The notes beneath the pieces are model-generated. The model saw nothing but the letters and a program-made list of their open reading frames with translations, had not been told where the DNA came from and did not search any database. From contig JADFXQ010000002.1 of the NCBI GenBank assembly GCA_015233495.1, positions 34,390 to 98,389 of the forward strand: a DNA stretch of 64,000 bases, given 5' to 3'. This document shows, piece after piece, positions 4,325-50,548 of this stretch. The first letter of the stretch is position 1. Every line of letters begins with the position of its first letter. The position numbers and the translations under genes were made by a program. This stretch comes from Candidatus Omnitrophota bacterium. GTDB lineage: Bacteria > Omnitrophota > Gorgyraeia > Zapsychrales > Zapsychraceae.

Positions 4325-5666
4325 TGTGTTGGTGGTGATTGATAATCGTTTTCGGGAAATGGTTCCGAGTTTTTTGATCCGGCACTATCTGCGGCAACAA
4401 GGCTTAACTTGCGCTTTTTGCAGCCGGTTTAGTATGTGGGGCGCGTTTAACCGGTTACGGCCCCGCGCGGTCATTTTGCCCAATCCGGGAGAACCGTATA
4501 TCGCGGAATTGATTAAACGGGCTTTTGTGTTTATTCTGCCGAGCGAATCGGGCAACGGCCAGACCGGTTCGATTTTGGCTTTTTTTAAAGGCAACGTTCA
4601 TTATCAAACCTATAGTCAGCAGGCGGACCGCATTTTTTCTTGGGGGCCGCTGATGACGGATATTTTGCGGGATAACCATATCGCGGCAAAAGAAAAAATC
4701 ATCATGACCGGCAATCCGATTACGGATCAATGGTTTATCAAGCCGCGGCCGAAAAAAAATAAAATCTTGGGACTCACGACGACGTTTCGGGTGATCAACA
4801 GCAGTTTGGGTCCGGTGAAGAATATATTCCGCGCGATGCGCGAACATGAAAATGAAGGCGCCGGTGTTTATTTTATGCCGCCGCGGCATATGGAAACTTG
4901 GTTTTTTTATGAGCTGAGTTATGTGCGGCTTTTAGCCAATCTGATCGATCAGGTGGTTATCGGCCGCGACATCCATTTGGAGATCCGGCCGCATCCGTCG
5001 GAAAAGGCGGAGCAGTATGATTATTACCGGCAGGTCACCGGCGGCCGGTGCTGCGCCGTTAAGTCCGGGTCGATTGTGGAGTGGCTGCAAGGCATTGATG
5101 TTTTAGCGACGTATTTATCCACTTCTGCCATCGACGCGATCGTCCGCGGCATTCCGGTTGTCTCGTTTAAAAAATTATTGAACCCGGACGCCTTGGCTAT
5201 GATGCCGGCGCATTATGATTTGGATTATAACGGATGGCTTTGGCAGCCCGCGACCCTGGAAGAATTCACGGAAATGGTGGCTGCCGGGTTTGCGGGTAAA
5301 TTAGAGATCACGCCGTTTAAAACGCAGTTTTTAAAAAGCATTTTTGATAAATTTTATTTTCCGCGTCCCCGGTTAGCTTCCCAGAATATCGCCGAGGAAA
5401 TCGCGGTGTTTTTAGGCCGGGAAACGCCGCGGCCGTTTTCGTATCTTCCGGCGCGCAATCCGCAGGGGATAAAAAAAATCGCGCATCGGGTGCTGCCGCA
5501 TATCCCTTATTCGGAAAATGCGTATCTTTTGCTCTATTCTCTGCAAAATTTCTTGGAAAAAGATCCGATCAGCGGCGCAGTGGGTATTTCTTATTTTCCC
5601 TGGGCGTGGGAATCGTTATTAACCGCCGGGCGAACCTCCCGGCAGATCATTGAAGCGGCGGCCTGA
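4317..5666 (+). CDS. hypothetical transferase-like protein (paralog family member 2)
   Basis: The ATG at 4317 overlaps the upstream stop (ATGTGTGA). The ORF-track start at 4047 lies inside the previous gene in the same frame and is rejected. Shares the FSWG...NP...ILGLTTTF motif pattern with gene 2489-4324. Confidence 0.45.
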   Translation: MCDVLVVIDNRFREMVPSFLIRHYLRQQGLTCAFCSRFSMWGAFNRLRPRAVILPNPGEPYIAELIKRAFVFILPSESGNGQTGSILAFFKGNVHYQTYSQQADRIFSWGPLMTDILRDNHIAAKEKIIMTGNPITDQWFIKPRPKKNKILGLTTTFRVINSSLGPVKNIFRAMREHENEGAGVYFMPPRHMETWFFYELSYVRLLANLIDQVVIGRDIHLEIRPHPSEKAEQYDYYRQVTGGRCCAVKSGSIVEWLQGIDVLATYLSTSAIDAIVRGIPVVSFKKLLNPDALAMMPAHYDLDYNGWLWQPATLEEFTEMVAAGFAGKLEITPFKTQFLKSIFDKFYFPRPRLASQNIAEEIAVFLGRETPRPFSYLPARNPQGIKKIAHRVLPHIPYSENAYLLLYSLQNFLEKDPISGAVGISYFPWAWESLLTAGRTSRQIIEAAA

Positions 5667-9788: not shown

Positions 9789-10792
9789 AGAAAAAAATTT
9801 ATATCATTGCGGAAGCCGGGGTGAATCACAACGGGAATATGGATATCGCCCGCAAAATGATTGATGCGGCAGCCGCGGCGCAAGCCGACGCGGTAAAATT
9901 TCAAACCTTTCGCGCCGTGAATCTGCTTTGCCCGTCCGCTCCGAAAGCGGCTTACCAGATGCAGACAACCCATCCGGAGGAATCACAATGGGACATGATC
10001 AAGGCCTTGGAACTTTTGCCGAGCGATCACCCAATATTATTGCAGCATTGCCGCGCGGCCGGCATTACGTTTCTTTCTTCGCCGTTTGATTTGCCCAGCA
10101 TCGCGTTGTTAGCGGGACTCGGGCTGGATATTTATAAGATTCCTTCGGGTGAAATTACTAATTTGCCGTATTTACGGCAAGTGGGTCAGCTGGGGAAACG
10201 GGTGATTTTATCCACGGGCATGGCCACGCTCGCGGAAACAGCGGCAGCCATCGACGTTTTGACCCAAGCCGGGACAAAGCGGGACGATATCACCGCGCTG
10301 CACTGCACGACAGAATACCCGACGCCGTATGGTCAAGTCAATTTAAAAGCGATGCTTACGCTCAAAGAAAAATTGGGCGTGGCGGTGGGGTATTCCGATC
10401 ACACGCTGGGGATTGAGGTGGCAGTGGCGGCCGCGGCCCTCGGCGCTACGGTGATTGAAAAACATTTTACCCTAGATCGGACCATGCCGGGACCGGATCA
10501 TCCGGCTTCATTGGAACCGCAGGATTTGCGGCGTTTGGTGGAAGCGGTCCGCAATATTGAACTCAGTTTGGGCGATGGGATAAAACGGATGTCCGCGGTA
10601 GAGGAAAAAAATGTGACCGTGGTCCGCAAAAGCATTGTCGCCGCGCAAAAAATTATCCGGGGCGAGGTGTTTACCGCCGAAAATTTAACGACGAAACGGC
10701 CGGGAACCGGGTTAAATCCGATGCGCTGGGATCAGGTGATCGGCCGGACGGCGAAACGCGATTTTCAACCGGATGAATTGATCGAATTATGA
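9785..10792 (+). CDS. N-acylneuraminate-9-phosphate/nonulosonic acid synthase (NeuB/LegI/PseI family)
   Basis: AEAGVNHNGNMDIARKMIDAAAAAQADAVKFQTF is the NeuB-family N-terminal signature. A C-terminal SAF-like segment is present. 335 aa. Confidence 0.8.
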   Translation: MKKKIYIIAEAGVNHNGNMDIARKMIDAAAAAQADAVKFQTFRAVNLLCPSAPKAAYQMQTTHPEESQWDMIKALELLPSDHPILLQHCRAAGITFLSSPFDLPSIALLAGLGLDIYKIPSGEITNLPYLRQVGQLGKRVILSTGMATLAETAAAIDVLTQAGTKRDDITALHCTTEYPTPYGQVNLKAMLTLKEKLGVAVGYSDHTLGIEVAVAAAALGATVIEKHFTLDRTMPGPDHPASLEPQDLRRLVEAVRNIELSLGDGIKRMSAVEEKNVTVVRKSIVAAQKIIRGEVFTAENLTTKRPGTGLNPMRWDQVIGRTAKRDFQPDELIEL

Positions 10793-34352: not shown

Positions 34353-34465
34353 GCACCATTCGAGAAACAGGCACAAGTCTAAGATATCCGCGTCTGCGTT
34401 GTCGGGGCGCTCCTACTACGGAAATATTGTAAATTTGTTGTGAATCCATTCAAAAAGGAACCTAT

Positions 34466-37147: not shown

Positions 37148-37375
37148 GTGTTTATTGCTCGCATATAAATAGACATAGGCGCGGCTGGGAGATAAAAATA
37201 GATTTGTTTAAATTATTGGCAGAAAGTTTATTCAGATCGTTCTTTTATTGAGGTGCGCGTCAGGTTATACCAATATCCCGTTTGGAAGTGGTAGGATGCA
37301 TAATGACCGACAGAGCGTTGTTTTTGGGATTGTCCCATCAAAGGGGATTGCAGCAATAAACCGATCTGTATATCT

Positions 37376-37675
37376 TTGCCGCCGGGAACTTATGAAATGA
37401 CATCATTTCGAACTATAACAATGGGGCCGCGTACAGAATCGGCGCCGGGCATTAAATTTAAGGTCGAGCCAAATTCTGTAGTATATATCGGCACATTAAC
37501 AGGGCAATCCCTGGGTCCGGCTTGGGGGCCGATACAGTATGTATTTAAGGTGGAAGATGAACTTGAAGAAGAGACGCAGGCTCAAGCCGAATCCTGTCCC
37601 GGCGTGAAAGATGGCAAGCCGGTGATTAGTTTGATGGAGGCGCCGTATAATTCGGTCAGGGCCAATGTTTGGTAA
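37376..37675 (+). CDS. hypothetical small protein
   Basis: 99-aa ORF with no recognisable motif. It may be spurious or a gene fragment. Confidence 0.25.
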   Translation: MPPGTYEMTSFRTITMGPRTESAPGIKFKVEPNSVVYIGTLTGQSLGPAWGPIQYVFKVEDELEEETQAQAESCPGVKDGKPVISLMEAPYNSVRANVW

Positions 37676-37732
37676 AATAGGGAGACAGCGCAAAATCGTA
37701 ATAACTTGTTCTAGTAAAAAGAGATCGTGAGA

Positions 37733-37750
37733 TCTGACACCATTTATTTT
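37733..37750. repeat. 18-bp inverted repeat, right copy (ctgacaccatttattttc)
   Basis: Exact reverse complement of 34335-34352. Confidence 0.8.
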
Positions 37751-37811
37751 CCGCAGTCCTAATTATTTCCTTCTTTCCGGATTAGAAGTTTTCCCGTTGA
37801 CTCAAAAGAAA

Positions 37812-37856
37812 ACGCTTTCCCGGAGGGCGCGCAAAGCGTCTTTTTTGCCGTTTTTA
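37812..37856 (+). terminator. terminator-like hairpin with T-run immediately upstream of the giant gene
   Basis: acgcttt(37812-18) / aaagcgt(37833-39) 7-bp stem with a 14-nt GC-rich loop, followed by cTTTTTTgccgTTTTTa. Confidence 0.3.
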
Positions 37857-37873
37857 TCGGGTATACTTTAAGT

Positions 37874-40800
37874 GTGGATACTATTTTTATTATTAGTATT
37901 TATAAACATATCTTGAAACGCTTGGTGGCTTTTGTTGTTTTGTTGTGTTTTTTGCTTTTAAATGTCCGGCCGCTTGCCGCGGGAGGTTGGCCACAGCCGC
38001 CATCCGTGACCATTCTTGATTCTTCGCGCCCTTTTACGCCATTTTTACTTAAAGGCGTCACCATCGATCCGCGCAATCCTTTGCATTTTGATTTTATCTT
38101 TGATCCCGGTCAATCTTCGATGTCCACGAATCATTCGGAAAAAGAAGCGAGCCGCATCGTCAAATATTTTTTGGCGGCTTTGGCTTTGCCGGAAAAAGAC
38201 CGCTGGGTCAATCTTTCTTTGCAAGAGAGCGGCAGGATAATCCCGGAAATTTTTGGTTTGACTGATATGGGACGGGATATGTTGTCGCTGGATTTTGTCT
38301 TAAAGCAGTTGTCTGCCTCTTTGACTCACCCGGAACAAAAATTAGGGGCGGAGTTTTGGCGCCGCGTTTACGCGAAGGTCAAGAAAGAATACGGCACAGA
38401 TGAAGTTCCGGTTGACTCGGTTACCCGGGTATGGATCGTGCCGGCGCAAGCCGTGGTTTATACGAGCGGGCAAAGCGCTTTTGTGGCTAAAAGCAGTCTT
38501 AAGGTATTAGCGGAAGAAGATTATTTGGCGGGGAAACCGCAAGGACTTAAAGCTTCGGAACCAGATAGCCTCAAAGGTAAAAATACCGCAGCGGTGTTCA
38601 CGGATATATTTCGCGCGATTGTAATCCCGGAGATCGAAAAGGAAGTAAACACAGGTGACGCCTTTGCGCCATTACGGCAGATTTATAACGCCCTGGTCCT
38701 CGCTACCTGGTTTAAACAACAGTGCAAAGCCGGGACGTTGGGAAAGGGCTATTTCGGACAAAAGAAGATTAAAGGAATTGATGTCGCAAAAGACCGGTTT
38801 AAAGAAAAAATTTATGAACAGTATACGGAGTCTCTGAAAAAAGGCGTTTATAATTTCATCAGGGAATATAACGATCCTTTGACGGAGGAAACCGTTTCCC
38901 GTCAATATTATTCCGGCGGGATCGAGTTTACGACAGAGGTTGATCGAAAAGTTCAGTTTTTGCCTTTAGAGAAAGAAGTGTTTCTTGCCGTCCTGAGAAA
39001 ATCGTCTCCGGTGTTAGAAGGCGCTTCAATATATATTGATCCGATAACCAAGGAGGAGAAACTACCGCGTCCCAGGATGTCTTCGCCGGTCAAGCCTCCC
39101 GTATTGGACGACAGTTCTCGGCAAGCGTTAGAGGATTTGGGATTGTCTTATAAAGAATTCCAACGATTGACTTTCGCGCAGACCGGATTCGAAGAAGCAT
39201 TGTTTAACGCTTTTCCGGCTTTAAAATTAAATATATTTTCTTTGCGGACGCAGGAACGTTTTTCCCGCGCGGTGCGGTCGCTGACGCGGGAATTGCGTGA
39301 GAATAGCGTAGAGCCAAAAATCGCTTTAGGGTTCGCGATCCGGTTTGCGATTCAACAATTCTATCAGGATATTTTGCCGGAAAATCTTTCATCGGCGGAT
39401 AACCAACGTTGGAATCAGATTGTCTCTCAATATTTTCGCGATTTTCTTCCCTCCCCGGGCCCGCGGATACCGGAGTATGTAAAACGGAAATACAATTTTG
39501 ACGATAACATGAACGGGAGGGTTGCCCGCGCCTTGATATCGCGAACCCCGGTTGTGTTTAAAGCCGCGAAAAACAGCGATGGATTGTTGACAGATGAGCT
39601 GCGACGGCAGGCCGGCGAGGGCAACATTGATTTGAGCGTTGTTTGGGGACATCCTTCCACGGATGAACGGCAGTTGATCGGCGGCCGCGTGCCTAAGGAG
39701 GGTAAAGACGGTTTGGTTTTCGGTTATGGCGTTTTAACGGAGAAAATTGAAGCCGCGCGCAGTGATCCGGGGAAGAAATATGTTGTGCTGATCAAAAATA
39801 TCGAAGCCGTTGATCCGGAAGTCCGCTTGCTTTTGCAAGAAATGCTGCGGATTTCCGAATTGTCCCATCCGGGTTTGGGTCAGGTATATCTTCCCGAGAA
39901 TTTTCAGATTATTTTCACCATGGCGGAAACCGCGAATATCGAAGACGATTCTTTTTACGACCGGGTCAGCGTAAAAACAGTTCCCGCCGATCTAACTTTC
40001 AAGCCGAAAACCCTTCCCGGTGTAACGGCAGGCGTCACGGCGGAGAATTACCGTTCTGTCTTAACCATTAAAGGGTCAGCGGACAATCCGGTTTTGGTTT
40101 TACCGGGGACACAGATCCGTTTGAACCAGGAATTTCGCGGGATCACTACTGAAAATATGTTTTCTATGATTTATGAAAAAACCGGTCTCTTGCTTGATTT
40201 CGATACGGTTCGGATGTTGGTCGCCATGGCGAACGCAGTCAAGTCCGGAGAACCCATTCTGCGGCTAATTGGTCCTACGGGTGTGGGAAAAACATTCACC
40301 AGCCGCGGATTTGCTTTATTGCGGGGCTCGTCTTTTTTCGCGAACCCGGTAAGTCCCGGCACGGAATTCACGGATTTGATCGGCAGTTTTGAGCAACAAG
40401 ACAATCACTTGTTCGCGTTTAACGGTGAGACCACATTTAAGGAGCGATTGGAAAACGGCGGGGTGGTGGCTTTGAGCGAGCTTAACACTTTAGTTGACAA
40501 TAATCAAAAAGCGAGCTTGGCGTGGTGGTTGACCCAGATCAGCCAGACTACCCCGGACGCCGACGGTTATCGGACGATTTATCTTACCGAAGTTCCGGTT
40601 GCGCCCGGACAACCGCGGCCGAGCATCCGGATTCATCCGCAGTCCTTGATTGTTGTTGATGTGAACCCGGCAGTCTATGAAAGCCGCGCCGCTTTTCCGG
40701 ATGTCTTCGAGGAATCCACGCCCGAATTGACTATTGGTTCGTATATTAGCGCTATTGCCGCGGATAGAGCGGCGGATATCCATAAATTATCTCAAACCGC

Positions 40801-43800
40801 CCGGCAATTTTTAAGCCTGGGTGTTCGGATTCAAGGACGGATGATTCCGGGGATTAGTGATCCGGCACGTTTGGAAGTTTTGGCAGAGGCAATAGGGACT
40901 CGGTATTATGAAGTGGTTGCCGCGTATGATCAGCACAAGTTTGGCGGTAAAGATCAATTTCATTTTTCAAATCGAGAACTTAAACGCATAGCGGAGGATG
41001 TTTTATTATGGATGGAGCGCGGCTTGAGTTCGGACGCGGCGCTCGCGAAAGCCTTTACTCATCATTTGGTGGTGCGCTGGAACGCGCAAAATGACCGGGA
41101 TTATGCCGCGAATTTGATACCTGACGCGGAAGTTACGCTGGGTTTACGGGAGTTTGTGGAACATGAAGTTTTCGTTGCTAATCGGCGGGCGCATATACGG
41201 GTTGCGTCAGGGATAGATACTCAAGTCTTGATCGATGAAATTAAAGACGGCAGGGATGATGTTGTGGTTCGCATTATTAACGTGACCCAGGAATTGGACA
41301 GGTTCAAATTGGAAGGCGGCCGTGTGGTGAATGAAGACGGCCGGGGTTACGCATTTGCCGAGGGGTTGATTGGCCGGATGATTGCACAAGCCGAAACAGC
41401 GCCGGATAAAAAATTTCTTTATGTTTTTGAGAATATCCATAATCTGTGGCCGGAAGACGCGGTGGGTTTGAACGAAATTCTTCAGGAAGGGACATTGTCG
41501 GTGCGGGGCAGGGATACCAAGCGTAGTATTCCGGTAAATGCCGGCATAATGTCCATCAGCCGTCAGGACACGGACTGGACCTGGTCGGAAGCGGAGAAAT
41601 CCCGGTATGTGACCTATGTTTATGAACGGGATACTATTGGCGAACAAATTCAAAACCGGCTTAACGATTATTTTCGCGCTAATGGTCTTGAGCCGGCAGT
41701 CGCGATAGCGTTAAGCCGGATGTTTTGGCGTAGGCTCAAGGTGTCTATAGAATATATTCAGTCGAATAAAGCTTATCAGAACCGGGTGAGCGAGCGCTCC
41801 GCGCTTAAATGTATAGAACTATTTATAAAATTGACCGCGGAAAGACAGGAGGCCGGCGGCTTGAATGTGGCGGATTTGATCAATTTGTTTCGAAAGTCTT
41901 GCGATTTGACGTTTGGGATCAGTGTTCCGCGACGTGTTTTACTGGATAACTCACAGAGTCGGGTTGCAGCTGTTTATCAGAATTTATTTACGGTTTTTGG
42001 CGCTCTGCCGTTTGGCGCGCCGTTGAACGCAGTGACATCGCAAAAATCTGGCGGGGCGGAAACCGCGGCGGGCGAAGCTGAAGCCGGTAATGTAAATTTG
42101 AATGGGGAAATCGCGCTAGCGCTCGCTGCAGCCAAATTAGATTTAGAAATGGCGGATGCAGAAGACCGGTCAAGCGCTTTGCAGAAATTGAAAGAGGTTT
42201 TGGAACTGTCTGAGCATACCGGAGATTTGACGGGAGAGCCAACCGCGGCGCAAGATTTAAAAAATCTTGATGTAGTCAGGGCAGTATTGAAACAGAGTTC
42301 GCATAAGTTTCGGGGAAGTGTTACAGGGTTCGACGTTAATGAACACGGCGTAGTAGTTTGGACTAACTTAGATGAGATATGGATACAAAAAAATGATGGT
42401 AAAATCTTAACGACACGATTTCCTGGCATGATCAGAAATGTAAGGATTTCAGCGGATGAACTGGTGTACATTTCGGGTGAAAATACGGTTTGTGTAATCA
42501 AACAAGATGACCTGAATCATTTGATATCTTATCCCACATATTTAACCACTGATAATGTTGAAGCGATTCAACATTTGGTTATTAGTAATGGAGTAGTTGC
42601 CGCGGCTACCGCAAAAGGGGGGCTTTTATTGTGGGAAAAGGAAGGGAATCAATGGTTAGAAAAGATTAGATGGAAGGATGGTTTTCCAATAGAGCAATTA
42701 TTGTTATCAGGTGAAACTTTAGCGGTGAGGATGCGTAATGGTACTTGTCGCATTTGGCAGAAAAATGGCGGAGCTTGGGAACAGCAATCCGGATTGGTTT
42801 TGGGCCATTCGTCGGATAACCGCTTTAAGAACCGAATTTGGCAAATCGTTGCAAAGGTCAGGAGAATATTTTTGGGGGGAGATAAAGGATATATTCCTGG
42901 AGTGAGTCAGATAGCTTTGTCTGAGACTGAATTCGCGATTTTTACTCATTCCGGAGAAATCATTATGTGGGCAAAAGAAGTCGGGCAATGGCGAGCAGAG
43001 CCGGTTTTACGAACTTCGATTGAACCGGGTGTTTATAGGGTGGGGCATTTTGTTTTGAAAGACAGCGCTTTGGTTTATTGCAGTTTTAATGGGGAAGTAC
43101 GTTTATGGGGAAAACATGGCGACAAATGGATCAAAGAACCATTGATAAAAGACGATACTTTTGGAACGAATGTCCGGTTTTTTGATTTTAATAATGGGGT
43201 CTTGGCTATTGGCGGAAACGTGGGCGCCCTGAAGACTTCATCAGCCGAACCAAAAGGGGGCATCCGCGTCTGGGAACGGGAATTTAGTCTATGGGGACCT
43301 AAATGGCAGCTTCGAATCAAGGAAGATAATTTAGATGGTTTGGCGGATTTGAAGGTATCGAAAGGCGCGGTTCGTGTTCTTGCTGTGACCTTGAATGGGC
43401 AAATATTGAGTTGGGTTAATCAAATTATTAAATGGCAAATCGATCCAGTGAGAACGATAAAGCATTCGGGCCAGATTTTTGGGGCGCAAACGCACTCGGG
43501 TAATTTGCTGGTCGTGACTACCGACGCGGTCGATGTTTATCAACCTGGCATAGGGATAGTTTATGGGACAGCGGTAATGCAGTTTAACGGCGCTGAAGAT
43601 GTGCCTGTGAGTGATTTAGCGGATGAGGTAGTCCGAATGAGTGTAAGAGAACCGCCGCGTCCGGAAATTTTGGCACAGCAAGAAGCGCGGGCAAAACAGG
43701 AGATTATTTTGGGAGACGAAAAAAAGCGAGCGCCGGCTTTGCTTAAATTGGGGGAAACGTTGACTGCGGCGGAACAGGCTGACCATTTGGAAAAGGAAGC

Positions 43801-46800
43801 TGAGGTTGAATCGGCAACATTAGCGGATTTGGATGTGGTGGTTGGGTTGATGAGCGAATCGGGCCACAAGTTCGCGGGCAAAATCAAAGGATTCGAGTCG
43901 AATGAATATGGCGTTTTAGCGTGGAGCGATCAGAAGGAAATTTGGTTGAAGGACGCGAAGGGGGATATTATCGAGTATCAATTTGATCAAGAAATCAGAT
44001 ACGCCAGAATCGCTCGGGATCGATTAGTTGTCGCGGATATTGACAGAATTTATATATGGGAGAAAGATAATGGGGTTTGGCAGCGACGAGCTTTTGTTTC
44101 AGATTTGTTGCCGGGTTATACTAAGGGGCTGGCGATTTCGGATGACGGCGTAGTCGCGGTTTGCAACAGCTACGGACAAATTTATTTATTTAAAAAACAA
44201 AATGGGCAATGGAAAAGCGCGAATAATATAAAAGTATTTTTTGTTATTGGAATGATTTTTGATCGTTTAGAAAAATTTTTGCTTAAAACAAACGTGGGTA
44301 TGGTTTTATGCCGTTTTATTGAGAAATGGGATTTCAGAATGCGCAGTAACCGATCATTTGACAAAATATATTTCCGGGGCGAATTATTGGTGGTAGAAGA
44401 AGTGGTGGATTATGATGGAAAACAGTATTTTGGCGTTTTTGAAAGAAAAGACGGCCGCTGGGCGCGGGTTTTTAAAAGAAAATTCGATGGACCGATTAAA
44501 AATTTTGTTGTTTTGAAAAATGTCTTAACTGTGGTTGATAAGCAAGGTGTGGTTTTTTCAGTTAGCAAATCTGAAGGTAAATGGGTTATGAGAGAGAGGA
44601 GGATAGGATCCGAACAGGTTTTATACATATCTGAGGATGTGTGGTTATCGGCGATAGGTGAAGTGCAGTTGGTATATAAAGATGGGGATCAGCCTGAGCA
44701 ATATCTTTTTTTACCTGTTCGATTCGCGGAGGTTTCTTATGTGGCAAGAGACAAAGATTTTTTAGCTATAGGCACTAAATCCGGATCGATTTATTTATAT
44801 GAGAAAAAAGATTATTTGCCGATAGGAAATACAAGTCGGATGTCTGCATATCTGGAACCGCAAAACAAGTGGAGATTGGCAGGACAGGCAGATAACTTGG
44901 GAACAATTAAGGGATTAAACATTAAAGATGGAAAAGTAATTGTGGCAACGGAAGACGGAAGTGTTAAATGGTTTGGGGTTGGCCGCGGGATGGTTCATGA
45001 AGGAATAGTGCGCAATCTGAATGGCGAGGGCCAGATGGATCAGCGGAGTTTGAGTAAAAAAGTTACCCGGTTAAAGGTGAAATATGAAAGACATAATCAA
45101 ACCGGATCTCCGGAAGATCAAAAGTTTGAGCCGCTGGTTGGCTATGGGAACCGGCCGTTTTATTTTGGCGCGGATCGAGACGGAAATGTATATCTGAATT
45201 TTGACAATCGTTGGTATCGGACGCGGCACACTTTGACGCAGCCCTTTGATCACGCTCTGTTGAGCGGGCCCCGCACAGCGCCCGTCAATGGTCGGCCGAC
45301 GGAGATTTTTCCCGTCCGGTTAGACGCGGTCAAGCATCCGGACAGCCGGCTGGAGCGGTCTTTCACCAAAAAAGATTTTTTGATGACTACCGGGGATTTG
45401 ACGGAAGAAGAAAAAGCGGTTTTACTGAATTTTGAGATATCCCGTCAGGTTGATTTGGAAGGTCCTTCCGGAGCCGGGAAAACGAGCATTGGGAAAGAGA
45501 TCGCGCTTTTGCTCGGCCTGCCGGTTTTTGTGTTGCAGATGCACGGTCAGCGGGATTTATCGGATTTGATCGGTGCCTATCGCGAGGATGAACACGGCCG
45601 GTATTATCTTTCCATGAAACCCAAACCAGTAGCTAAGGATATTTTGGAAGCTGCGGTCGCGCCGGCATTGGTGAGTCGGTTATTGGAAAAAGGGGTTATT
45701 CGCGTTGATGACAAGGATCCAGAGGTTTACTACTGGGGGTATGGGATTTATTCTTTGGTTGATTTGGAAGAGCGTTTGGACGCTTTGGGCGGCATACTCG
45801 GCCAACCGGACAAAAAGGCGCTGCGTGCCTTGGTGCATTATCGTTTGCCGCTTTTGGAGTTTTTGACGTGGGGCGGGATATATATCGTGGATGAAGGCGC
45901 GATCGGGGAACAGGGTCAGGCTTTGATCAACTGGTTTAGCCGGATTGTGAACGGTGATTCCGAAATCAGTATTGATGATTTCACTGGACTCTCAATTCGG
46001 TTTAAGGTGCATACGGATTTTCATTTGATTATCACTAACAATTCTCCGGAAGACACGGCCGGCCGGGAGTTTTTGAAAAGCGAAATCGCGGCTAATATCG
46101 GGTTTATTTATGTCCCGGAAGATGATTCCCCGGACACTATTGAAGGTTTGTTGGAACATTTTTTACAAGATGAATTAGCCGGGACAGATGTCCGGGGAGT
46201 GAAAAGCGCTCTGCGTAAATTGTATTTGGATATCAAAGCGGCAGTGGGAACCAGCATCGGGACAGATAAAAAAGAGCGGTATTATATTTCCAAACGGGAA
46301 ATCCGCCGGGTGGCAGCCCGGCTATTGTTTGAATACAAAAAAGATCCGGAACATTTTGATTTTACTTATAGTTTTTATAAGGCTTTGCGGATTGTGTTTG
46401 AAGCCGCGTTTTCGCATGAACAAGAGAGACAATTCGTGATGGATAAAATTGTCACTCATTTGAAAGAGACATTTCCGGAACGGGCGCAAGCGATTGATCA
46501 ATTTAAAGCCAAGCTCGAGGCGGAAATTAACAATCGTTTTGCTTTTGCTTCAACTGAAAATGAGAAATGGGTTTTATGGGTGGCAGATGAACTTTTAAAC
46601 CAGGATGAGCCGTTGTTATTGATCGACGAACGCGGGGCCAGGACCAGAGCGATGTTAAGGCGATTGCAAGAAAACCGGGGCGCGGTATTCGATCTGGTCG
46701 ACGCGGTTCCGAGTCATACCAGTTTCGAACTTTTAGGAGCGATTCTGCCGGAATTTTCGGATAAGGGGATTGCCAAACCCGGGAGCAGGATGCGTTTTGT

Positions 46801-49800
46801 GAAAGGCCGGCTCATTGAACATCTGTTGACCAAAGAAGAAATGGAGCAGGCCGAGAGCCAAGGCGGAAAAAGTCAAGAGGTCATTGTCTGGATCAGGAAT
46901 ATCGATCAATGGAACGAAGATATCCGCAGTAGTCTCAACGGTCTTTTAGAAAACGGATATATTGACATTGAAACCAGCCGGGGTGAAACGATCCGGTATT
47001 ATAAACCGCGTCACGTGCGATTTATCGCCGGGATCAATGCCCAGAGCGGCGAGGATTTTTCCAGCGCGTTTTTCAACCGCTGGGTGAAAGTCGGTGTCCT
47101 GGCAGAACCGCGGCCGGATCAAAATGTTGACAAGGGAGAATCGGATTTTCAAAAGGTGTTGAGCGATGTTTATGAAATGGATTCCCGCGAGGCCTATTTA
47201 TTCGCGCGTTTGTTTTTAGAGACGTCCCGCCGGGAAGCTCAGAGACAATGGAGCGTTCAGGAGAGTTATGATTTAACTCCCGAGACATTTTACCTGATTG
47301 CCGCGGCGGTGCGGTTGGCGAAACAACAAAGTCCGCAGTGGCAAGCCATTTTGGCCGCGTTTGAACGGCAGAATTATGATCCGCGCCGGGAATCGCCGAC
47401 TAACGCGGCGCAACGCGATCTGGAGGCCGAGTATCGTCGTTTGTCTAACCGGATATTGACCCAGGAAATCGCCCGTTTGTTTTTACCGCGGTTTCGAACC
47501 GCTACTTCCGCTGATACCGGGGACCGCAAGCTGGTGGAAGATAGTATCCGGGCCGTTTTTAACCTTCAGGGGCCGATTACGCTGGATACGACAGATATTG
47601 TTTCACCCGATTTGTCAGCGGTCCCGGACAAGATCCGGCTGTATTACACGACAAAAATCCGGGAATATTTGAGCGCTCTACAGCGGGCGTCGCAGATGAA
47701 TCGCGGTATTGATATGTTGGGCGAATCAGGCGCCGCGAAAACCACTTTGGCCGAACATTTGGCTCACCGCACGGGGAGAAAGTTTTACAAATATCAGTCG
47801 CACGCGAAAAGTGAGGTGACAGATCTGACGATCGAGCTTAGTCAGACGGAAGACGGCGTCATTCAGAAGCGGTACAAGGAATTTTATGCTTGGCTGAAAA
47901 ATGGGAATGCGGTGATTGATTTTGACGAAGCCAACGCGGCGCCGCATATTTTATGGGCGCTGGAAGCGGTCCTGAATGGAGAGAGCGTTATTTATCCGGC
48001 TTTTCCGGGTGAGAAACCCTTTAAGATCGGTGATAATATCACGATTGTTTTTACTCGTAACCCCCTGCGTTATGCCGGCCGGCAACAGATTGAAAAACGG
48101 ATCACAGATAAAATGGTTGTCTTATGGATTGATTTGCCTGATCCGGAGGAAAAAGCGAAAATTGTTCAGACGTTTTACGGGGTTTGGGCCTTAGAGGAAG
48201 AAACGGCAGTCGCGCCGACTGAGGAACTACACCCGAAAGAGAAGGCCAATATCCCACATGAAAGCGATCTGCCGGTTTCGGACACTATTGATATGGACAC
48301 GGATATGAAGGAAGGCCGGGAGATACCGACTATGCAAGATGAAAAAAATTTAACCGAACCACCGGCGGTTTCCACTGCCCCTAAACCCGCGGCGCGCGGG
48401 GTATTCACGCCGGAACTTTATCCGCGGACTCGTCTGGGGGTCTATAATCGATTCGATGCGGCCACAGAAAAATTTTGGCTTGAACGAGGCGAGTATAAAT
48501 CCGTGCCAGTGACTCCGAAGACCGGGAGGGAAAGAACGATCATTGAGGAGACAAGAGATATTTTTCAGGGACAATATATTTTGCGTCTGGGACATGCCTT
48601 CAGCCGCTTGCCGTCGGCTGGAGCGGATATGGAGTTTATTGATTTGAGTGTGAGGGATACCGCGGGTAACTTGCTGGACATTCCGGTCGAGATTACGCGT
48701 GACAGCGCGGACAATTATTATATTCGGCAAAAAGACGCAGATGCTCCGGCAGCTGAGGTTGAAATCCGTTACACAGTCACAGTAGCGAAAGAATATTTCG
48801 GGAAGATTATTCCCAATAACCCGGACATTGGACCGGATATCCGCGAGACCATGACTGTGATGGGTCTCACCCCCAATAACCCGGACATTGGACCGGATAT
48901 CCGCGAGGCCATGACTGTGATGGGTCTCACCGGAAAGGAACGGGATTTCCGGGAGGTTTTATATAAAATGATCGCGTTTACCCGGGATTTTAAATTAGAA
49001 AAAATAACCGCGGAAGGACCAAGTAAATTTTTACGGATTTTAAGATCGGGTGCGGGTGTTTGCCGGCATGGGGCGCAGATATTTGCCGCAACGGCTTGGG
49101 CGATCGGAATGCCGGCCAGGTTAGTCGTTTCCGATATTCATGAATTCGTGGAAGTGGAGGTTCCGGGAATCGGCTGGATGCAAATTGACCTCGGCGGGGG
49201 CGGCGATCCCGCCAACATGGATTTGAGTCCGCTGGCGAATGAGCGGCATAATCCGGCGTATGCCAATGATTTTCCCGAGCCGGAAAATTATAAACAAAAA
49301 AAGGAGTTGTATCGGGACCTATATGAGAAGGCGATGAAGGATCAGGGGATTAAACCGCCGGTATCTCCCCGGCCGAATCGCTCCGGCGAAACGGGCGCGG
49401 CGGATAACGACGCGGCGATAGGCGGTCATTTTGATCCGAAACTGGAAGGGGAGCGCATTGACGCGGCTTTGGCAAATTTGATCCGCGAACAGGGGGCGAC
49501 GCTTAACCAGGATATTGAAAATTCGTTTCAGAGCGGCACGGTCATCGCCGAGCAAGTATTCGAACGGATGAAGCGGGCTATTGAAGCGGGGATCCGTTAT
49601 AAACGGGAAATGAAGAAAAATGGGTTGGAGATTGATCCCGTGGCCTGGATGCTGCGCTTACCGAATCCGTTTGTCAAGCGGACACGGGTTACGAAATTGC
49701 AGACCACCGCAGTGGCGGTTTTGTTTGACGCGAGCGGCAGTATTAGCGTTATCCGTGAGCCGGTCACTTACGCGATCGCCGTTACCGGAAAGAATTTTCA

Positions 49801-50548
49801 GCAATTGAACGATACGGCGCCGCAGCATTTTCATTATGATCTTTCGACTTATACCCATCTTGAACCCGAGACGATTGATAGCATGAGTCAGCGGATGAGC
49901 GCGGAAGATATGGATAAACAATTGATTAAATTAGCGAACTTGATCGGGAACGGCGGCGGCAATGATTTGCAACGGGCAATGTCTTTTAAGCTGACGAATG
50001 AACAAGGTACAGGTTTTCTTGATGCCCGCGAGGCGCGAACCGCGAAAGTGAAATATATGATCGTGTTTACCGACGGAGCTGACGCGGCCATTCGGCAGAA
50101 CGGAAATGATTATGAGCCCCAGGATTCTTTTAAGGAAGTTTTACGAAGATATCGTGACGCCGGGATTGACTTGATTGCCATCGGGATCGGCGCAGGCTCA
50201 AAATATGTGCGGGCGTTCAAAGGCGAGGGACAGCATTTTGTCCAGATTGACGATAAGCATCCCGAAAACATCGCGGAAGCAATCGCGGCTATCGCGGAGC
50301 TGAAATCCAGGGGAATGGGTATTTTGCCGGACGGCGACATCACGCCTTTGATGCAATTCTCGCAAAGCAGTCCGATCAGCGATGCAGACGCGAATAAAGT
50401 CGGCGGTATTGATTTGACCGCGGACTGGGTGACTATTGAAACGCATACCGCGGGCCGCGAAATTCAAATTCCTCGGCTTCCTGAAAATTTTGACTGGTCG
50501 CGAGTGCAGGGATTAAACCCGCTGATTCTGGAATTTTATTCGTATTAA
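37874..50548 (+). CDS. giant secreted multi-AAA+ ATPase / beta-propeller / transglutaminase-like / vWA(MIDAS) protein, 4224 aa
   Basis: A single uninterrupted 12,675-nt ORF. GTG start with no obvious SD; an in-frame TTG at 37913 is an alternative. N-terminal signal peptide (KRLVAFVVLLCFLLLNVRPLAA). Walker A motifs GPTGVGKT (40271), GPSGAGKT (45461) and GESGAAKT (47720), with matching AAA_5-type Walker B regions. Duplicated W-rich repeat module at 42295-45420. TGase core GVCRHG...H...D at 49049-49189. vWA MIDAS motif DASGS at ~49730. Confidence 0.85.
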   Translation: MDTIFIISIYKHILKRLVAFVVLLCFLLLNVRPLAAGGWPQPPSVTILDSSRPFTPFLLKGVTIDPRNPLHFDFIFDPGQSSMSTNHSEKEASRIVKYFLAALALPEKDRWVNLSLQESGRIIPEIFGLTDMGRDMLSLDFVLKQLSASLTHPEQKLGAEFWRRVYAKVKKEYGTDEVPVDSVTRVWIVPAQAVVYTSGQSAFVAKSSLKVLAEEDYLAGKPQGLKASEPDSLKGKNTAAVFTDIFRAIVIPEIEKEVNTGDAFAPLRQIYNALVLATWFKQQCKAGTLGKGYFGQKKIKGIDVAKDRFKEKIYEQYTESLKKGVYNFIREYNDPLTEETVSRQYYSGGIEFTTEVDRKVQFLPLEKEVFLAVLRKSSPVLEGASIYIDPITKEEKLPRPRMSSPVKPPVLDDSSRQALEDLGLSYKEFQRLTFAQTGFEEALFNAFPALKLNIFSLRTQERFSRAVRSLTRELRENSVEPKIALGFAIRFAIQQFYQDILPENLSSADNQRWNQIVSQYFRDFLPSPGPRIPEYVKRKYNFDDNMNGRVARALISRTPVVFKAAKNSDGLLTDELRRQAGEGNIDLSVVWGHPSTDERQLIGGRVPKEGKDGLVFGYGVLTEKIEAARSDPGKKYVVLIKNIEAVDPEVRLLLQEMLRISELSHPGLGQVYLPENFQIIFTMAETANIEDDSFYDRVSVKTVPADLTFKPKTLPGVTAGVTAENYRSVLTIKGSADNPVLVLPGTQIRLNQEFRGITTENMFSMIYEKTGLLLDFDTVRMLVAMANAVKSGEPILRLIGPTGVGKTFTSRGFALLRGSSFFANPVSPGTEFTDLIGSFEQQDNHLFAFNGETTFKERLENGGVVALSELNTLVDNNQKASLAWWLTQISQTTPDADGYRTIYLTEVPVAPGQPRPSIRIHPQSLIVVDVNPAVYESRAAFPDVFEESTPELTIGSYISAIAADRAADIHKLSQTARQFLSLGVRIQGRMIPGISDPARLEVLAEAIGTRYYEVVAAYDQHKFGGKDQFHFSNRELKRIAEDVLLWMERGLSSDAALAKAFTHHLVVRWNAQNDRDYAANLIPDAEVTLGLREFVEHEVFVANRRAHIRVASGIDTQVLIDEIKDGRDDVVVRIINVTQELDRFKLEGGRVVNEDGRGYAFAEGLIGRMIAQAETAPDKKFLYVFENIHNLWPEDAVGLNEILQEGTLSVRGRDTKRSIPVNAGIMSISRQDTDWTWSEAEKSRYVTYVYERDTIGEQIQNRLNDYFRANGLEPAVAIALSRMFWRRLKVSIEYIQSNKAYQNRVSERSALKCIELFIKLTAERQEAGGLNVADLINLFRKSCDLTFGISVPRRVLLDNSQSRVAAVYQNLFTVFGALPFGAPLNAVTSQKSGGAETAAGEAEAGNVNLNGEIALALAAAKLDLEMADAEDRSSALQKLKEVLELSEHTGDLTGEPTAAQDLKNLDVVRAVLKQSSHKFRGSVTGFDVNEHGVVVWTNLDEIWIQKNDGKILTTRFPGMIRNVRISADELVYISGENTVCVIKQDDLNHLISYPTYLTTDNVEAIQHLVISNGVVAAATAKGGLLLWEKEGNQWLEKIRWKDGFPIEQLLLSGETLAVRMRNGTCRIWQKNGGAWEQQSGLVLGHSSDNRFKNRIWQIVAKVRRIFLGGDKGYIPGVSQIALSETEFAIFTHSGEIIMWAKEVGQWRAEPVLRTSIEPGVYRVGHFVLKDSALVYCSFNGEVRLWGKHGDKWIKEPLIKDDTFGTNVRFFDFNNGVLAIGGNVGALKTSSAEPKGGIRVWEREFSLWGPKWQLRIKEDNLDGLADLKVSKGAVRVLAVTLNGQILSWVNQIIKWQIDPVRTIKHSGQIFGAQTHSGNLLVVTTDAVDVYQPGIGIVYGTAVMQFNGAEDVPVSDLADEVVRMSVREPPRPEILAQQEARAKQEIILGDEKKRAPALLKLGETLTAAEQADHLEKEAEVESATLADLDVVVGLMSESGHKFAGKIKGFESNEYGVLAWSDQKEIWLKDAKGDIIEYQFDQEIRYARIARDRLVVADIDRIYIWEKDNGVWQRRAFVSDLLPGYTKGLAISDDGVVAVCNSYGQIYLFKKQNGQWKSANNIKVFFVIGMIFDRLEKFLLKTNVGMVLCRFIEKWDFRMRSNRSFDKIYFRGELLVVEEVVDYDGKQYFGVFERKDGRWARVFKRKFDGPIKNFVVLKNVLTVVDKQGVVFSVSKSEGKWVMRERRIGSEQVLYISEDVWLSAIGEVQLVYKDGDQPEQYLFLPVRFAEVSYVARDKDFLAIGTKSGSIYLYEKKDYLPIGNTSRMSAYLEPQNKWRLAGQADNLGTIKGLNIKDGKVIVATEDGSVKWFGVGRGMVHEGIVRNLNGEGQMDQRSLSKKVTRLKVKYERHNQTGSPEDQKFEPLVGYGNRPFYFGADRDGNVYLNFDNRWYRTRHTLTQPFDHALLSGPRTAPVNGRPTEIFPVRLDAVKHPDSRLERSFTKKDFLMTTGDLTEEEKAVLLNFEISRQVDLEGPSGAGKTSIGKEIALLLGLPVFVLQMHGQRDLSDLIGAYREDEHGRYYLSMKPKPVAKDILEAAVAPALVSRLLEKGVIRVDDKDPEVYYWGYGIYSLVDLEERLDALGGILGQPDKKALRALVHYRLPLLEFLTWGGIYIVDEGAIGEQGQALINWFSRIVNGDSEISIDDFTGLSIRFKVHTDFHLIITNNSPEDTAGREFLKSEIAANIGFIYVPEDDSPDTIEGLLEHFLQDELAGTDVRGVKSALRKLYLDIKAAVGTSIGTDKKERYYISKREIRRVAARLLFEYKKDPEHFDFTYSFYKALRIVFEAAFSHEQERQFVMDKIVTHLKETFPERAQAIDQFKAKLEAEINNRFAFASTENEKWVLWVADELLNQDEPLLLIDERGARTRAMLRRLQENRGAVFDLVDAVPSHTSFELLGAILPEFSDKGIAKPGSRMRFVKGRLIEHLLTKEEMEQAESQGGKSQEVIVWIRNIDQWNEDIRSSLNGLLENGYIDIETSRGETIRYYKPRHVRFIAGINAQSGEDFSSAFFNRWVKVGVLAEPRPDQNVDKGESDFQKVLSDVYEMDSREAYLFARLFLETSRREAQRQWSVQESYDLTPETFYLIAAAVRLAKQQSPQWQAILAAFERQNYDPRRESPTNAAQRDLEAEYRRLSNRILTQEIARLFLPRFRTATSADTGDRKLVEDSIRAVFNLQGPITLDTTDIVSPDLSAVPDKIRLYYTTKIREYLSALQRASQMNRGIDMLGESGAAKTTLAEHLAHRTGRKFYKYQSHAKSEVTDLTIELSQTEDGVIQKRYKEFYAWLKNGNAVIDFDEANAAPHILWALEAVLNGESVIYPAFPGEKPFKIGDNITIVFTRNPLRYAGRQQIEKRITDKMVVLWIDLPDPEEKAKIVQTFYGVWALEEETAVAPTEELHPKEKANIPHESDLPVSDTIDMDTDMKEGREIPTMQDEKNLTEPPAVSTAPKPAARGVFTPELYPRTRLGVYNRFDAATEKFWLERGEYKSVPVTPKTGRERTIIEETRDIFQGQYILRLGHAFSRLPSAGADMEFIDLSVRDTAGNLLDIPVEITRDSADNYYIRQKDADAPAAEVEIRYTVTVAKEYFGKIIPNNPDIGPDIRETMTVMGLTPNNPDIGPDIREAMTVMGLTGKERDFREVLYKMIAFTRDFKLEKITAEGPSKFLRILRSGAGVCRHGAQIFAATAWAIGMPARLVVSDIHEFVEVEVPGIGWMQIDLGGGGDPANMDLSPLANERHNPAYANDFPEPENYKQKKELYRDLYEKAMKDQGIKPPVSPRPNRSGETGAADNDAAIGGHFDPKLEGERIDAALANLIREQGATLNQDIENSFQSGTVIAEQVFERMKRAIEAGIRYKREMKKNGLEIDPVAWMLRLPNPFVKRTRVTKLQTTAVAVLFDASGSISVIREPVTYAIAVTGKNFQQLNDTAPQHFHYDLSTYTHLEPETIDSMSQRMSAEDMDKQLIKLANLIGNGGGNDLQRAMSFKLTNEQGTGFLDAREARTAKVKYMIVFTDGADAAIRQNGNDYEPQDSFKEVLRRYRDAGIDLIAIGIGAGSKYVRAFKGEGQHFVQIDDKHPENIAEAIAAIAELKSRGMGILPDGDITPLMQFSQSSPISDADANKVGGIDLTADWVTIETHTAGREIQIPRLPENFDWSRVQGLNPLILEFYSY
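42295..45420 (+). repeat. internal tandem duplication of a ~520-aa Trp-rich beta-propeller-like module (protein level)
   Basis: Module 1 starts HKFRGSVTGFDVNEHGVVVWTNLDEIWIQKNDGKIL. Module 2 starts HKFAGKIKGFESNEYGVLAWSDQKEIWLKDAKGDII. Both contain recurring phi-W-x-K-x-G-x-W repeats. Confidence 0.6.
48811..48930 (+). repeat. perfect 2 x 60-bp in-frame tandem duplication inside the giant gene
   Basis: 48811-48870 and 48871-48930 differ at only 2 positions. They encode PNNPDIGPDIRE(T/A)MTVMGLT twice. Confidence 0.9.

Follow-up and report, generated by a model that had tools for sequence, protein, structure and literature searches.

A giant gene and the vWA domain near its end

This work deals with a stretch of 64,000 nucleotides, hereafter the window (positions 34,390 to 98,389 of the forward strand of contig JADFXQ010000002.1, assembly GCA_015233495.1), from the metagenome-assembled genome (MAG) of a Candidatus Omnitrophota bacterium, and with the von Willebrand factor A (vWA) domain encoded near the end of a giant gene that it carries. 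The open reading frame (ORF), 4,224 codons long (37874..50548, + strand), specifies a protein of 4,224 amino acids, 100% identical to GenBank MBF0531693.1, which is recorded as 'MAG: AAA family ATPase [Candidatus Omnitrophica bacterium]' on a 111-kb contig. From one end to the other, this protein displays a signal-peptide-like N-terminus, AAA-type ATPase modules A to C, a propeller-like stretch, modules D to F, a transglutaminase-like domain, the vWA domain and a tail. On the whole protein, Pfam recognizes four AAA_5 stretches (95 bits overall), Transglut_core at residues 3710-3772 and weak beta-propeller signals, and an AAA_5 match was also found in 14/14 relatives. We find that positions 49712-50344 encode a genuine vWA domain whose MIDAS (an adhesion site that depends on a metal ion) is near-canonical, and that the same polypeptide contains six AAA-type modules of two classes.

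Relatives of the vWA region were collected by searching 1.84 billion cluster representatives exhaustively with HMMER (E<=1e-3); this returned MBF0531693.1 itself and 45 relatives (about 46 cluster representatives). Most of these 45 are full copies or pieces of proteins of 2,000-6,900 residues, the match lying near their C-terminus. Those with a name belong to MAGs of Omnitrophota and Elusimicrobiota, under labels such as 'AAA family ATPase', 'MoxR-like ATPase', 'MoxR-like ATPase/WD40 repeat protein' or 'hypothetical protein'. When the vWA domain and tail alone served as query in a word-indexed homology search, no match came back, and a scan of metagenome contigs produced 600 pattern matches with 0 confirmed relatives. 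NCBIfam matches of the giant protein to GvpN, Lon and MadB all fell below threshold.

The vWA domain and its immediate surroundings are organized as follows (pLDDT, predicted local distance difference test, being the confidence measure of AlphaFold2 models):

49559..49711, + strand: conserved N-terminal extension of the vWA domain (residues 3896-3946), predicted as helix, long strand, short helix, long strand in a high-pLDDT model, with a conserved G.EIDP.A motif
49712..50344, + strand: vWA domain core, ending in a conserved PDGDIT motif (residues 4152-4157), recognized with Pfam, an AlphaFold2 model, Foldseek and a family profile
49727..49741, + strand: MIDAS DxSxS motif, D3952 (33/33 relatives), S3954 (32/33) and S3956 (33/33)
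49961..49963, + strand: Asn4030 at the MIDAS Thr position, a family column with T in 17, N in 10 and I in 6
50072..50074, + strand: MIDAS Asp4067 in a TDG motif (D in 33/33), at the end of beta strand 164-171 of the model
50384..50545, + strand: C-terminal tail module 'GGIDL ... GL.P(V/L)I' (residues 4171-4224), about 50 residues, shared with relatives P0006, P0018, P0036, P0042, P0043 and P0048

The original prediction, made from the sequence alone, had placed a vWA domain at 49700-50300, downstream of AAA_5 modules in the same chain, and had proposed a hidden Markov model search and a structural model to verify it. The domain does lie downstream of such modules in a single ORF, and both approaches recover it. 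Pfam VWA (PF00092, curated cutoff 23.8 bits) matches residues 3947-4109 with 29 bits when the whole protein is scanned and with 34.1 bits (E 4e-8) when the C-terminal 382 residues are; a failure to match vWA profiles, the outcome named beforehand as refuting, did not occur. The three peptides from which the domain had been recognized are all in frame in that ORF and inside the predicted interval, in the order announced: VAVLFDASGSIS (residues 3947-3958, nucleotides 49712-49747), MIVFTDGADAA (residues 4062-4072, nucleotides 50057-50089) and DLIAIGIGAG (residues 4099-4108, nucleotides 50168-50197).

An alignment of 33 relatives, 23-49% identical to the window protein, served both for an AlphaFold2 model and for a family profile. 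The model has a mean pLDDT of 85.6, with values above 90 across most of fragment residues 10-250. Compared by Foldseek with the structures of the PDB, this predicted fold gave 189 matches with E<=1e-3. Of these, 50 were listed, nearly all of them vWA/MIDAS domains or proteins that contain one. The top match was the vWA domain of NorD within the NorQ-NorD complex (9qhe_G, E 8e-9); the MIDAS domains of human MDN1 and of Rea1 (8ql1_G, 6qt8) came at ranks 7 and 11, with generic vWA domains also following NorD. At the level of sequence, the best matches of the 33-sequence profile among solved structures were PTMP1 (E 1.5e-17), integrin alpha-X (3e-8) and TRAP (3e-7).

That the MIDAS is intact, as had also been proposed together with a check of its Thr and Asp positions, stands in part. 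The DxSxS motif and Asp4067 are present and invariant or nearly so in the 33 relatives, but the Thr position is occupied by asparagine, in the context GGG-N-DLQRAM. In alignments of the 33-sequence profile, the column of Asn4030 falls opposite the MIDAS Thr in both PTMP1 (GQTEIG) and TRAP (GRTNLSDAL), and in the AlphaFold2 model this residue sits in the loop directly ahead of helix 137-145, as expected for the Thr position. With the DxSxS residues and the Asp in place and the Thr replaced, the site is four-fifths canonical, and 'intact' is too strong a word. Leu4032 had been considered as the equivalent of the Thr on the basis of an early 4-sequence profile and a single weak integrin match (integrin alpha-1); this register was rejected because 17/33 relatives carry Thr two residues earlier and because the larger profile pairs that earlier column with the Thr of PTMP1 and TRAP.

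Nor does the MIDAS domain form the extreme C-terminus of the chain, as had been claimed. After the PDGDIT motif, 67 residues remain in the window protein, including the conserved tail module, and between 2 and 1,088 residues follow the vWA domain in the relatives. A profile of the tail module matched 100 short metagenome ORFs, the 2 of them that carry a name being both from Omnitrophota. This module has no Pfam match and is given low confidence in the AlphaFold2 model; it could be a sorting or anchoring signal. On the other side of the domain, the conserved N-terminal extension occupies the place of the NorD finger that is inserted into the pore of its ATPase. By analogy, it is put forward as a candidate finger, perhaps able to reach into the pore of an AAA ring.

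Six AAA-type modules and their likeness to midasin and dynein

Upstream of the vWA domain, the chain comprises six modules, of which A to C are assigned by homology and D to F are also predicted as a structural model:

39431..40153, + strand: module A, class 2, without Walker A and with 'KNIE' at the place of Walker B; AAA_5 20.1 bits; hhalign A with C 97.9%, A with E 97.0%
40151..40903, + strand: module B, class 1, Walker A GPTGVGKT (residues 800-807), 'SE' at the Walker B position (residues 868-869, 40475-40480); AAA_5 22.3 bits; hhalign B with D 99.3%, B with F 99.2%
41141..41863, + strand: module C, class 2, without Walker A, 'ENIH'; hhalign C with A 97.9%, C with E 95.7%; orthologous matches in relatives
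45341..46153, + strand: module D, class 1, Walker A GPSGAGKT (residues 2530-2537), Walker B VDEG (residue 2672); conserved motifs, modelled
46361..47143, + strand: module E, class 2, 'ERGARTR' at the place of Walker A, 'RNID'; AAA_5 13.3 bits; hhalign with A and C
47591..48283, + strand: module F, class 1, Walker A GESGAAKT (residues 3283-3290), Walker B FDEAN (residue 3350); AAA_5 39.2 bits; best single-module match to Rea1

The three segments that lack Walker A share a 'K/E/R-N-I-x' motif and lie before and between the Walker A sites at residues 800, 2530 and 3283. Module C alone has no Pfam match. When each of the six was compared with the relatives by phmmer, it gave a strong orthologous match and the order of the modules was kept; cross-matches were also seen, from A to the positions of C and E, and among B, D and F. 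Profile comparison by hhalign separates the same two classes, with probabilities of 96-98% within A/C/E, 99% within B/D/F and low values between them. Taken together, these cross-matches and classes draw a layout of three pairs, each made of a class 2 module followed by a class 1 module.

The residues expected of an active ATPase are under strong conservation in part of this set. In modules D and F, the Gly, Lys and Thr of Walker A, the Asp-Glu pair of Walker B and the candidate sensor-1 Asn are invariant in 14 relatives (25-43% identity). Module B retains the Lys and Thr of Walker A together with the SE pair at Walker B in 15/15 aligned relatives; these motifs suggest a conserved site where ATP may be bound but poorly hydrolysed.

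An AlphaFold2 model of modules D-E-F (981 residues, 14-sequence alignment) reached a pLDDT of 82.8 and a predicted TM score (pTM) of 0.80. Its best matches in the PDB are the motor domains of yeast and human dynein, with E-values down to 1e-25 over about 1,000 columns and TM scores of 0.50-0.57 (query-normalized); one matched entry consists of dynein AAA1-AAA3 alone. As the model aligns end to end with the tandem AAA modules of dynein, module E falls inside that stretch despite its missing Walker A. Sequence comparison points toward midasin. While phmmer with the whole protein gave no match at E<=0.01 among PDB sequences, the family profile of D-E-F placed midasin at the top (Rea1 and Mdn1, E 5e-55 and 7e-40), followed by dynein (8e-7, 31 bits), Lon (1e-6) and NorQ (5e-6, 28.4 bits). 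Taken separately, module F matched Rea1 residues 995-1191 with 53.5 bits, the best score of any single module, and residues 1677-1853 with 32.4 bits; module D matched residues 564-900 (25.1 bits) and module E residues 1257-1363 (20.0 bits). These matches are not colinear along Rea1. Among the Pfam lid families, DYN_lid (dynein) and AAA_lid_5 (midasin) are each matched by one relative.

Companion domains, topology and neighbouring genes

The account given by the original prediction left out three parts of the chain: the transglutaminase-like domain, the propeller-like stretch and the signal-like segment at the N-terminus. They are located as follows, with a duplication found nearby:

37910..37966, + strand: N-terminal hydrophobic segment (residues 13-31), ILKRLVAFVVLLCFLLLNV, followed by RPLAAGG; Kyte-Doolittle scans
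42071..45133, + strand: pair of beta-propeller-like repeat regions in tandem, separating module C from module D, borders approximate; weak sub-threshold beta-propeller/WD40 Pfam matches
48812..48931, + strand: in-frame 60-nt tandem duplication (2.0 copies, 98% identical) encoding PNNPDIGPDIRE(T/A)MTVMGLT twice; single copy in relatives
49001..49210, + strand: transglutaminase-like core with Cys3730, His3756 and Asp3772; Pfam Transglut_core 25.5-29.1 bits, cutoff 23

The triad of the transglutaminase-like domain is conserved, with Cys in 15/15 relatives, His in 15/15 and Asp in 12/15. The 60-nt duplication sits directly upstream of its core and is either a recent event or an assembly artefact. 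In the relatives, WD40 repeats occur at the position of the propeller-like stretch, the length of which varies widely.

By its hydrophobicity, the segment at the N-terminus resembles a Sec signal peptide or a signal anchor, and a similar one is present in most full-length relatives examined. The Kyte-Doolittle scan revealed no second hydrophobic segment in the window protein, and none near the transglutaminase-like domain. Such a predicted export signal conflicts with the strong conservation of the ATPase motifs. Extra membrane segments are found in relatives P0009, P0019 and P0029, placed in such a way that, on our reading, the ATPase modules and the vWA domain would be intracellular, which suggests a cytoplasmic site for the family.

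One homologue in Joint Genome Institute (JGI) data (sample 3300033153, here L001) is called as three genes of 5,878, 1,771 and 1,089 amino acids; genes 1 and 2 are parted by an 18-nt A-rich gap (L001 ~9983-10000), genes 2 and 3 by a single in-frame TAG (L001 15317-15319). If continuous, the protein would exceed 8,700 residues, and the breaks could be sequencing errors, the marks of a pseudogene or recoding.

The neighbourhood of the giant gene was scanned over ten ORFs, about 10 kb upstream and 3 kb downstream. Besides ORFs without a Pfam match, it comprises Wzy_C, a hexapeptide transferase, two PMT_2, GH26 and GT2, so that the named ORFs have functions in cell-surface glycans. None of the ten is a MoxR, vWA, nor, cbb, cox or gas-vesicle gene. 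Between 28000 and 38000 of the window, the guanine plus cytosine content is 0.42-0.45, versus about 0.50 elsewhere; this region spans the glycan block that immediately precedes the giant ORF (Wzy_C, hexapeptide transferase, PMT_2, GH26), a possible case of a surface-polysaccharide island that is variable or was acquired laterally. A gap of 727 nt without a long ORF (37148-37873) precedes the giant gene, with promoter-like matches at background level, and scans for promoters and terminators at the borders of the gene gave nothing above background.

A proposed remodelling machine in one chain, and its known counterparts

ATPases of the MoxR class act with vWA partners. In NorQ-NorD, a finger located N-terminal to the vWA core enters the pore of the ATPase and ATP turnover rotates the vWA domain, and the MIDAS domain of midasin attaches likewise to the ring of its own chain (PMC13036017). 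Operons associating MoxR, vWA and transglutaminase-like (TGL) proteins are common in prokaryotes, where they are predicted to ensure a membrane-proximal degradation: the vWA protein would bring in the substrate, to be unfolded by MoxR and cut by TGL (Zhang and Aravind, 2012, PMC3495828). Reasoning by analogy with midasin/Rea1 and NorQ-NorD, from which we infer ring closure, docking, the binding of metal and ligand and the identity of the target, we consider it probable, with moderate confidence, that the vWA domain of the window belongs to a single-chain fusion of a MoxR-vWA-transglutaminase system built as midasin is, with a six-module ring in cis, a docking vWA domain and a target that is remodelled and then cut or cross-linked. 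In such a machine, the six AAA_5-type modules would take the place of a homohexamer by forming a pseudo-hexameric ring, in which ATP would be bound and hydrolysed by D and F and perhaps by B. The vWA domain would dock on this ring with its conserved N-terminal extension (residues 3896-3946) as a finger, and its MIDAS would hold the target through an acidic residue, the carboxylate of which would complete the coordination of the metal. Movements of the ring driven by ATP would pull or twist the bound target, after which the adjacent Cys-His-Asp transglutaminase-like domain would cleave or cross-link it, while the beta-propellers may serve as further binding platforms.

Several observations weigh against this proposal. 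The signal-like N-terminus, in a chain with no second hydrophobic segment, predicts that the whole protein is exported to a compartment lacking ATP. Between modules C and D come some 1,100 residues of propeller-like sequence; the class 2 modules are devoid of Walker A, and in module B the DE pair is replaced by SE. With Asn at the Thr position here and Ile in 6/33 relatives, the canonical open-state coordination of the metal is not guaranteed. The MIDAS of midasin and NorD are not among the 60 sequence matches listed for the vWA profile. Finally, the neighbouring genes encode glycan enzymes, with no obvious substrate among them.

Part of these features would be explained if the vWA domain were an extracellular adhesion domain, of the type of the integrin I domain, apicomplexan TRAP/MIC2, mussel PTMP1 or pilus-tip adhesins, carried by a secreted or surface-anchored giant with which very small bacteria attach to a host or prey. 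The signal-peptide-like N-terminus would then be in its place, the best sequence matches of the vWA profile (PTMP1, integrins, TRAP) are indeed extracellular adhesive domains, the flanking genes build cell-surface glycans, and a role in adhesion or predation has been proposed for giant Omnitrophota ORFs (PMC10066038; bioRxiv 10.1101/2023.11.21.568195). However, six AAA-type modules with invariant motifs for ATP binding and hydrolysis make no sense outside the cytoplasm, the best structural match is the cytoplasmic vWA domain of NorD bound to its own ATPase, and the extra membrane segments of P0009, P0019 and P0029 would put the ATPase modules and the vWA domain in the cytoplasm: we see this explanation as distinctly unlikely. 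Improbable as well is a single-chain version of the 'ternary' vWA-MoxR conflict or defence systems, in which the propellers would sense an invader and the ATPase and vWA parts would pass the signal on, with the transglutaminase-like thiol peptidase as effector. The window protein has the domain set of these systems, where vWA domains fused to propellers and, rarely, transglutaminase-like peptidase effectors are found (Kaur et al., 2020, PMC7159879), but PADLOC gave no meaningful match (best E 4e-4, 18 bits), the flanks carry no other defence gene and there is no separate component of the VMAP type.

Even less credit can be given to a chaperone for the insertion of metal cofactors, of the NorQ/NorD, CbbQ/CbbO or CoxD/CoxE kind, in which the MIDAS would bind a metalloenzyme for the ATPase to open. 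The rank of NorD in its NorQD complex at the top of the structural neighbours speaks for it, as does the weak GvpN-type NCBIfam match (57 bits versus a cutoff of 267), GvpN being a member of the CbbQ/NorQ/GvpN branch of the MoxR ATPases. Against it stand the absence of nor, cbb, cox and gas-vesicle genes from the ten flanking ORFs, and the presence of a peptidase domain, propellers and a signal peptide, which fit poorly with a dedicated metallochaperone. Least probable of all, to our mind, is that the MIDAS is functionally degenerate and the vWA domain a mere structural module docked on the AAA ring, with neither metal nor external ligand. Variation of the Thr position between T, N and I, with the non-coordinating Ile in 6/33 relatives, would fit with such a loss, but all three DxSxS residues and the second Asp persist in 32-33/33 relatives, and this retention in sequences as divergent as 23-49% identity is hard to explain without metal binding.

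The preferred reading, a single-chain MoxR-vWA-transglutaminase fusion, is distinct from the matter of ancestry. According to Zhang and Aravind (PMC3495828), a protein with six modules emerged from MoxR 'early in eukaryotic evolution', and the single chains with six AAA modules discussed elsewhere are dynein, Rea1 and RNF213 (PMC7311170). The literature consulted treats such chains (dynein, midasin, RNF213) as eukaryotic, and here is a bacterial family with six modules and a MIDAS-type vWA domain, its ATPase modules being more like midasin than like any other solved protein and its public labels generic. Full-text phrase searches brought up no relevant mention of a midasin or dynein from bacteria or prokaryotes, although the older AAA+ and midasin literature possibly contains an earlier mention of multi-AAA bacterial relatives. 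It could be, then, that this Omnitrophota/Elusimicrobiota family is a true prokaryotic relative of midasin by common descent, the six-AAA ring with a C-terminal MIDAS having arisen in bacteria or passed between bacteria and early eukaryotes. That midasin is by far the best solved sequence match argues for this view, which we hold to be rather doubtful: the threefold repetition of a class 2 and class 1 pair points to an internal triplication and, with the lack of colinearity of the Rea1 matches, favours an independent origin. Were the relationship real, the family would bear on the origin of the dynein/midasin class, and the transglutaminase link would retain the MoxR-vWA-TGL arrangement attributed by Zhang and Aravind to its ancestor. 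Were it convergent, the fusion of a hexameric ATPase and a vWA adaptor into one chain would have evolved twice. In any event, the present analysis shows which domains occur in one class of the very large and poorly understood proteins found in Omnitrophota and Elusimicrobiota, and the export signal set against conserved ATPase motifs makes a testable puzzle.

By analogy, the protein appears to work most like midasin and NorQ-NorD. With midasin it shares its very large size in a single chain (4,224 residues here, 4,717-4,910 in the solved midasin chains) and the presence of six AAA_5-class modules and of a vWA/MIDAS domain near the C-terminus of one polypeptide. The differences are many. Midasin is a eukaryotic nuclear protein acting on pre-60S particles, whereas the window protein is bacterial, from an Omnitrophota MAG, with a signal-peptide-like N-terminus; its modules alternate between those without and those with Walker A, its two AAA triplets are split by the propeller-like sequence, it has Asn for the MIDAS Thr and it ends in an extra tail. 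In the place of the long helical linker and D/E-rich region of midasin it has the transglutaminase-like domain, within about 430 residues between module F and the vWA extension where the acidic stretch is short (22% D+E over 80 residues). Membership in the midasin family was therefore rejected, on account of the missing linker and D/E-rich region, the Asn, the non-colinear modules and a bacterial origin with an export signal. The likeness to midasin put forward in the original prediction proves stronger than could be seen there, given the six AAA modules, the dynein-like arc of modules D to F and midasin as the best PDB sequence match; it does not extend to the position of the vWA domain, to the Thr residue or to the transglutaminase, propeller and signal segments, which are not features of midasin. 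Dynein and RNF213 likewise have six AAA modules per chain with active and inactive sites mixed. However, dynein has no vWA domain and its similarity in sequence is weak (31 bits), and the Pfam scan of the window protein detected no stalk or microtubule-binding domain and no E3 module, as are found in dynein and RNF213.

Turning to bacteria, NorQ-NorD and its counterparts CbbQ-CbbO and CoxD-CoxE offer, in the vWA domain of NorD, the best structural neighbour of the modelled domain, with an N-terminal extension predicted at the place of the NorD finger. They differ by their separate genes, homohexameric ATPase, canonical DxSxS-T-D site and dedicated metalloenzyme target encoded nearby, none of which the window protein has. 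The MoxR-vWA-TGL system of the YebA type, known from bacteria and archaea, resembles it in its domain types, as an AAA_5/MoxR-class ATPase, a vWA domain and a TGL domain with Cys, His and Asp are all present in the window protein. There, three separate genes are involved, the ATPase is a single hexamerizing gene product, and TGL is located in a loop of an eight-helix membrane protein; here, one ORF fuses all three, six modules stand in tandem, TGL is not embedded in a membrane, and beta-propellers and a tail module are added. Among bacterial systems, the MoxR-vWA-transglutaminase operon is the closer precedent for the giant protein of the window.

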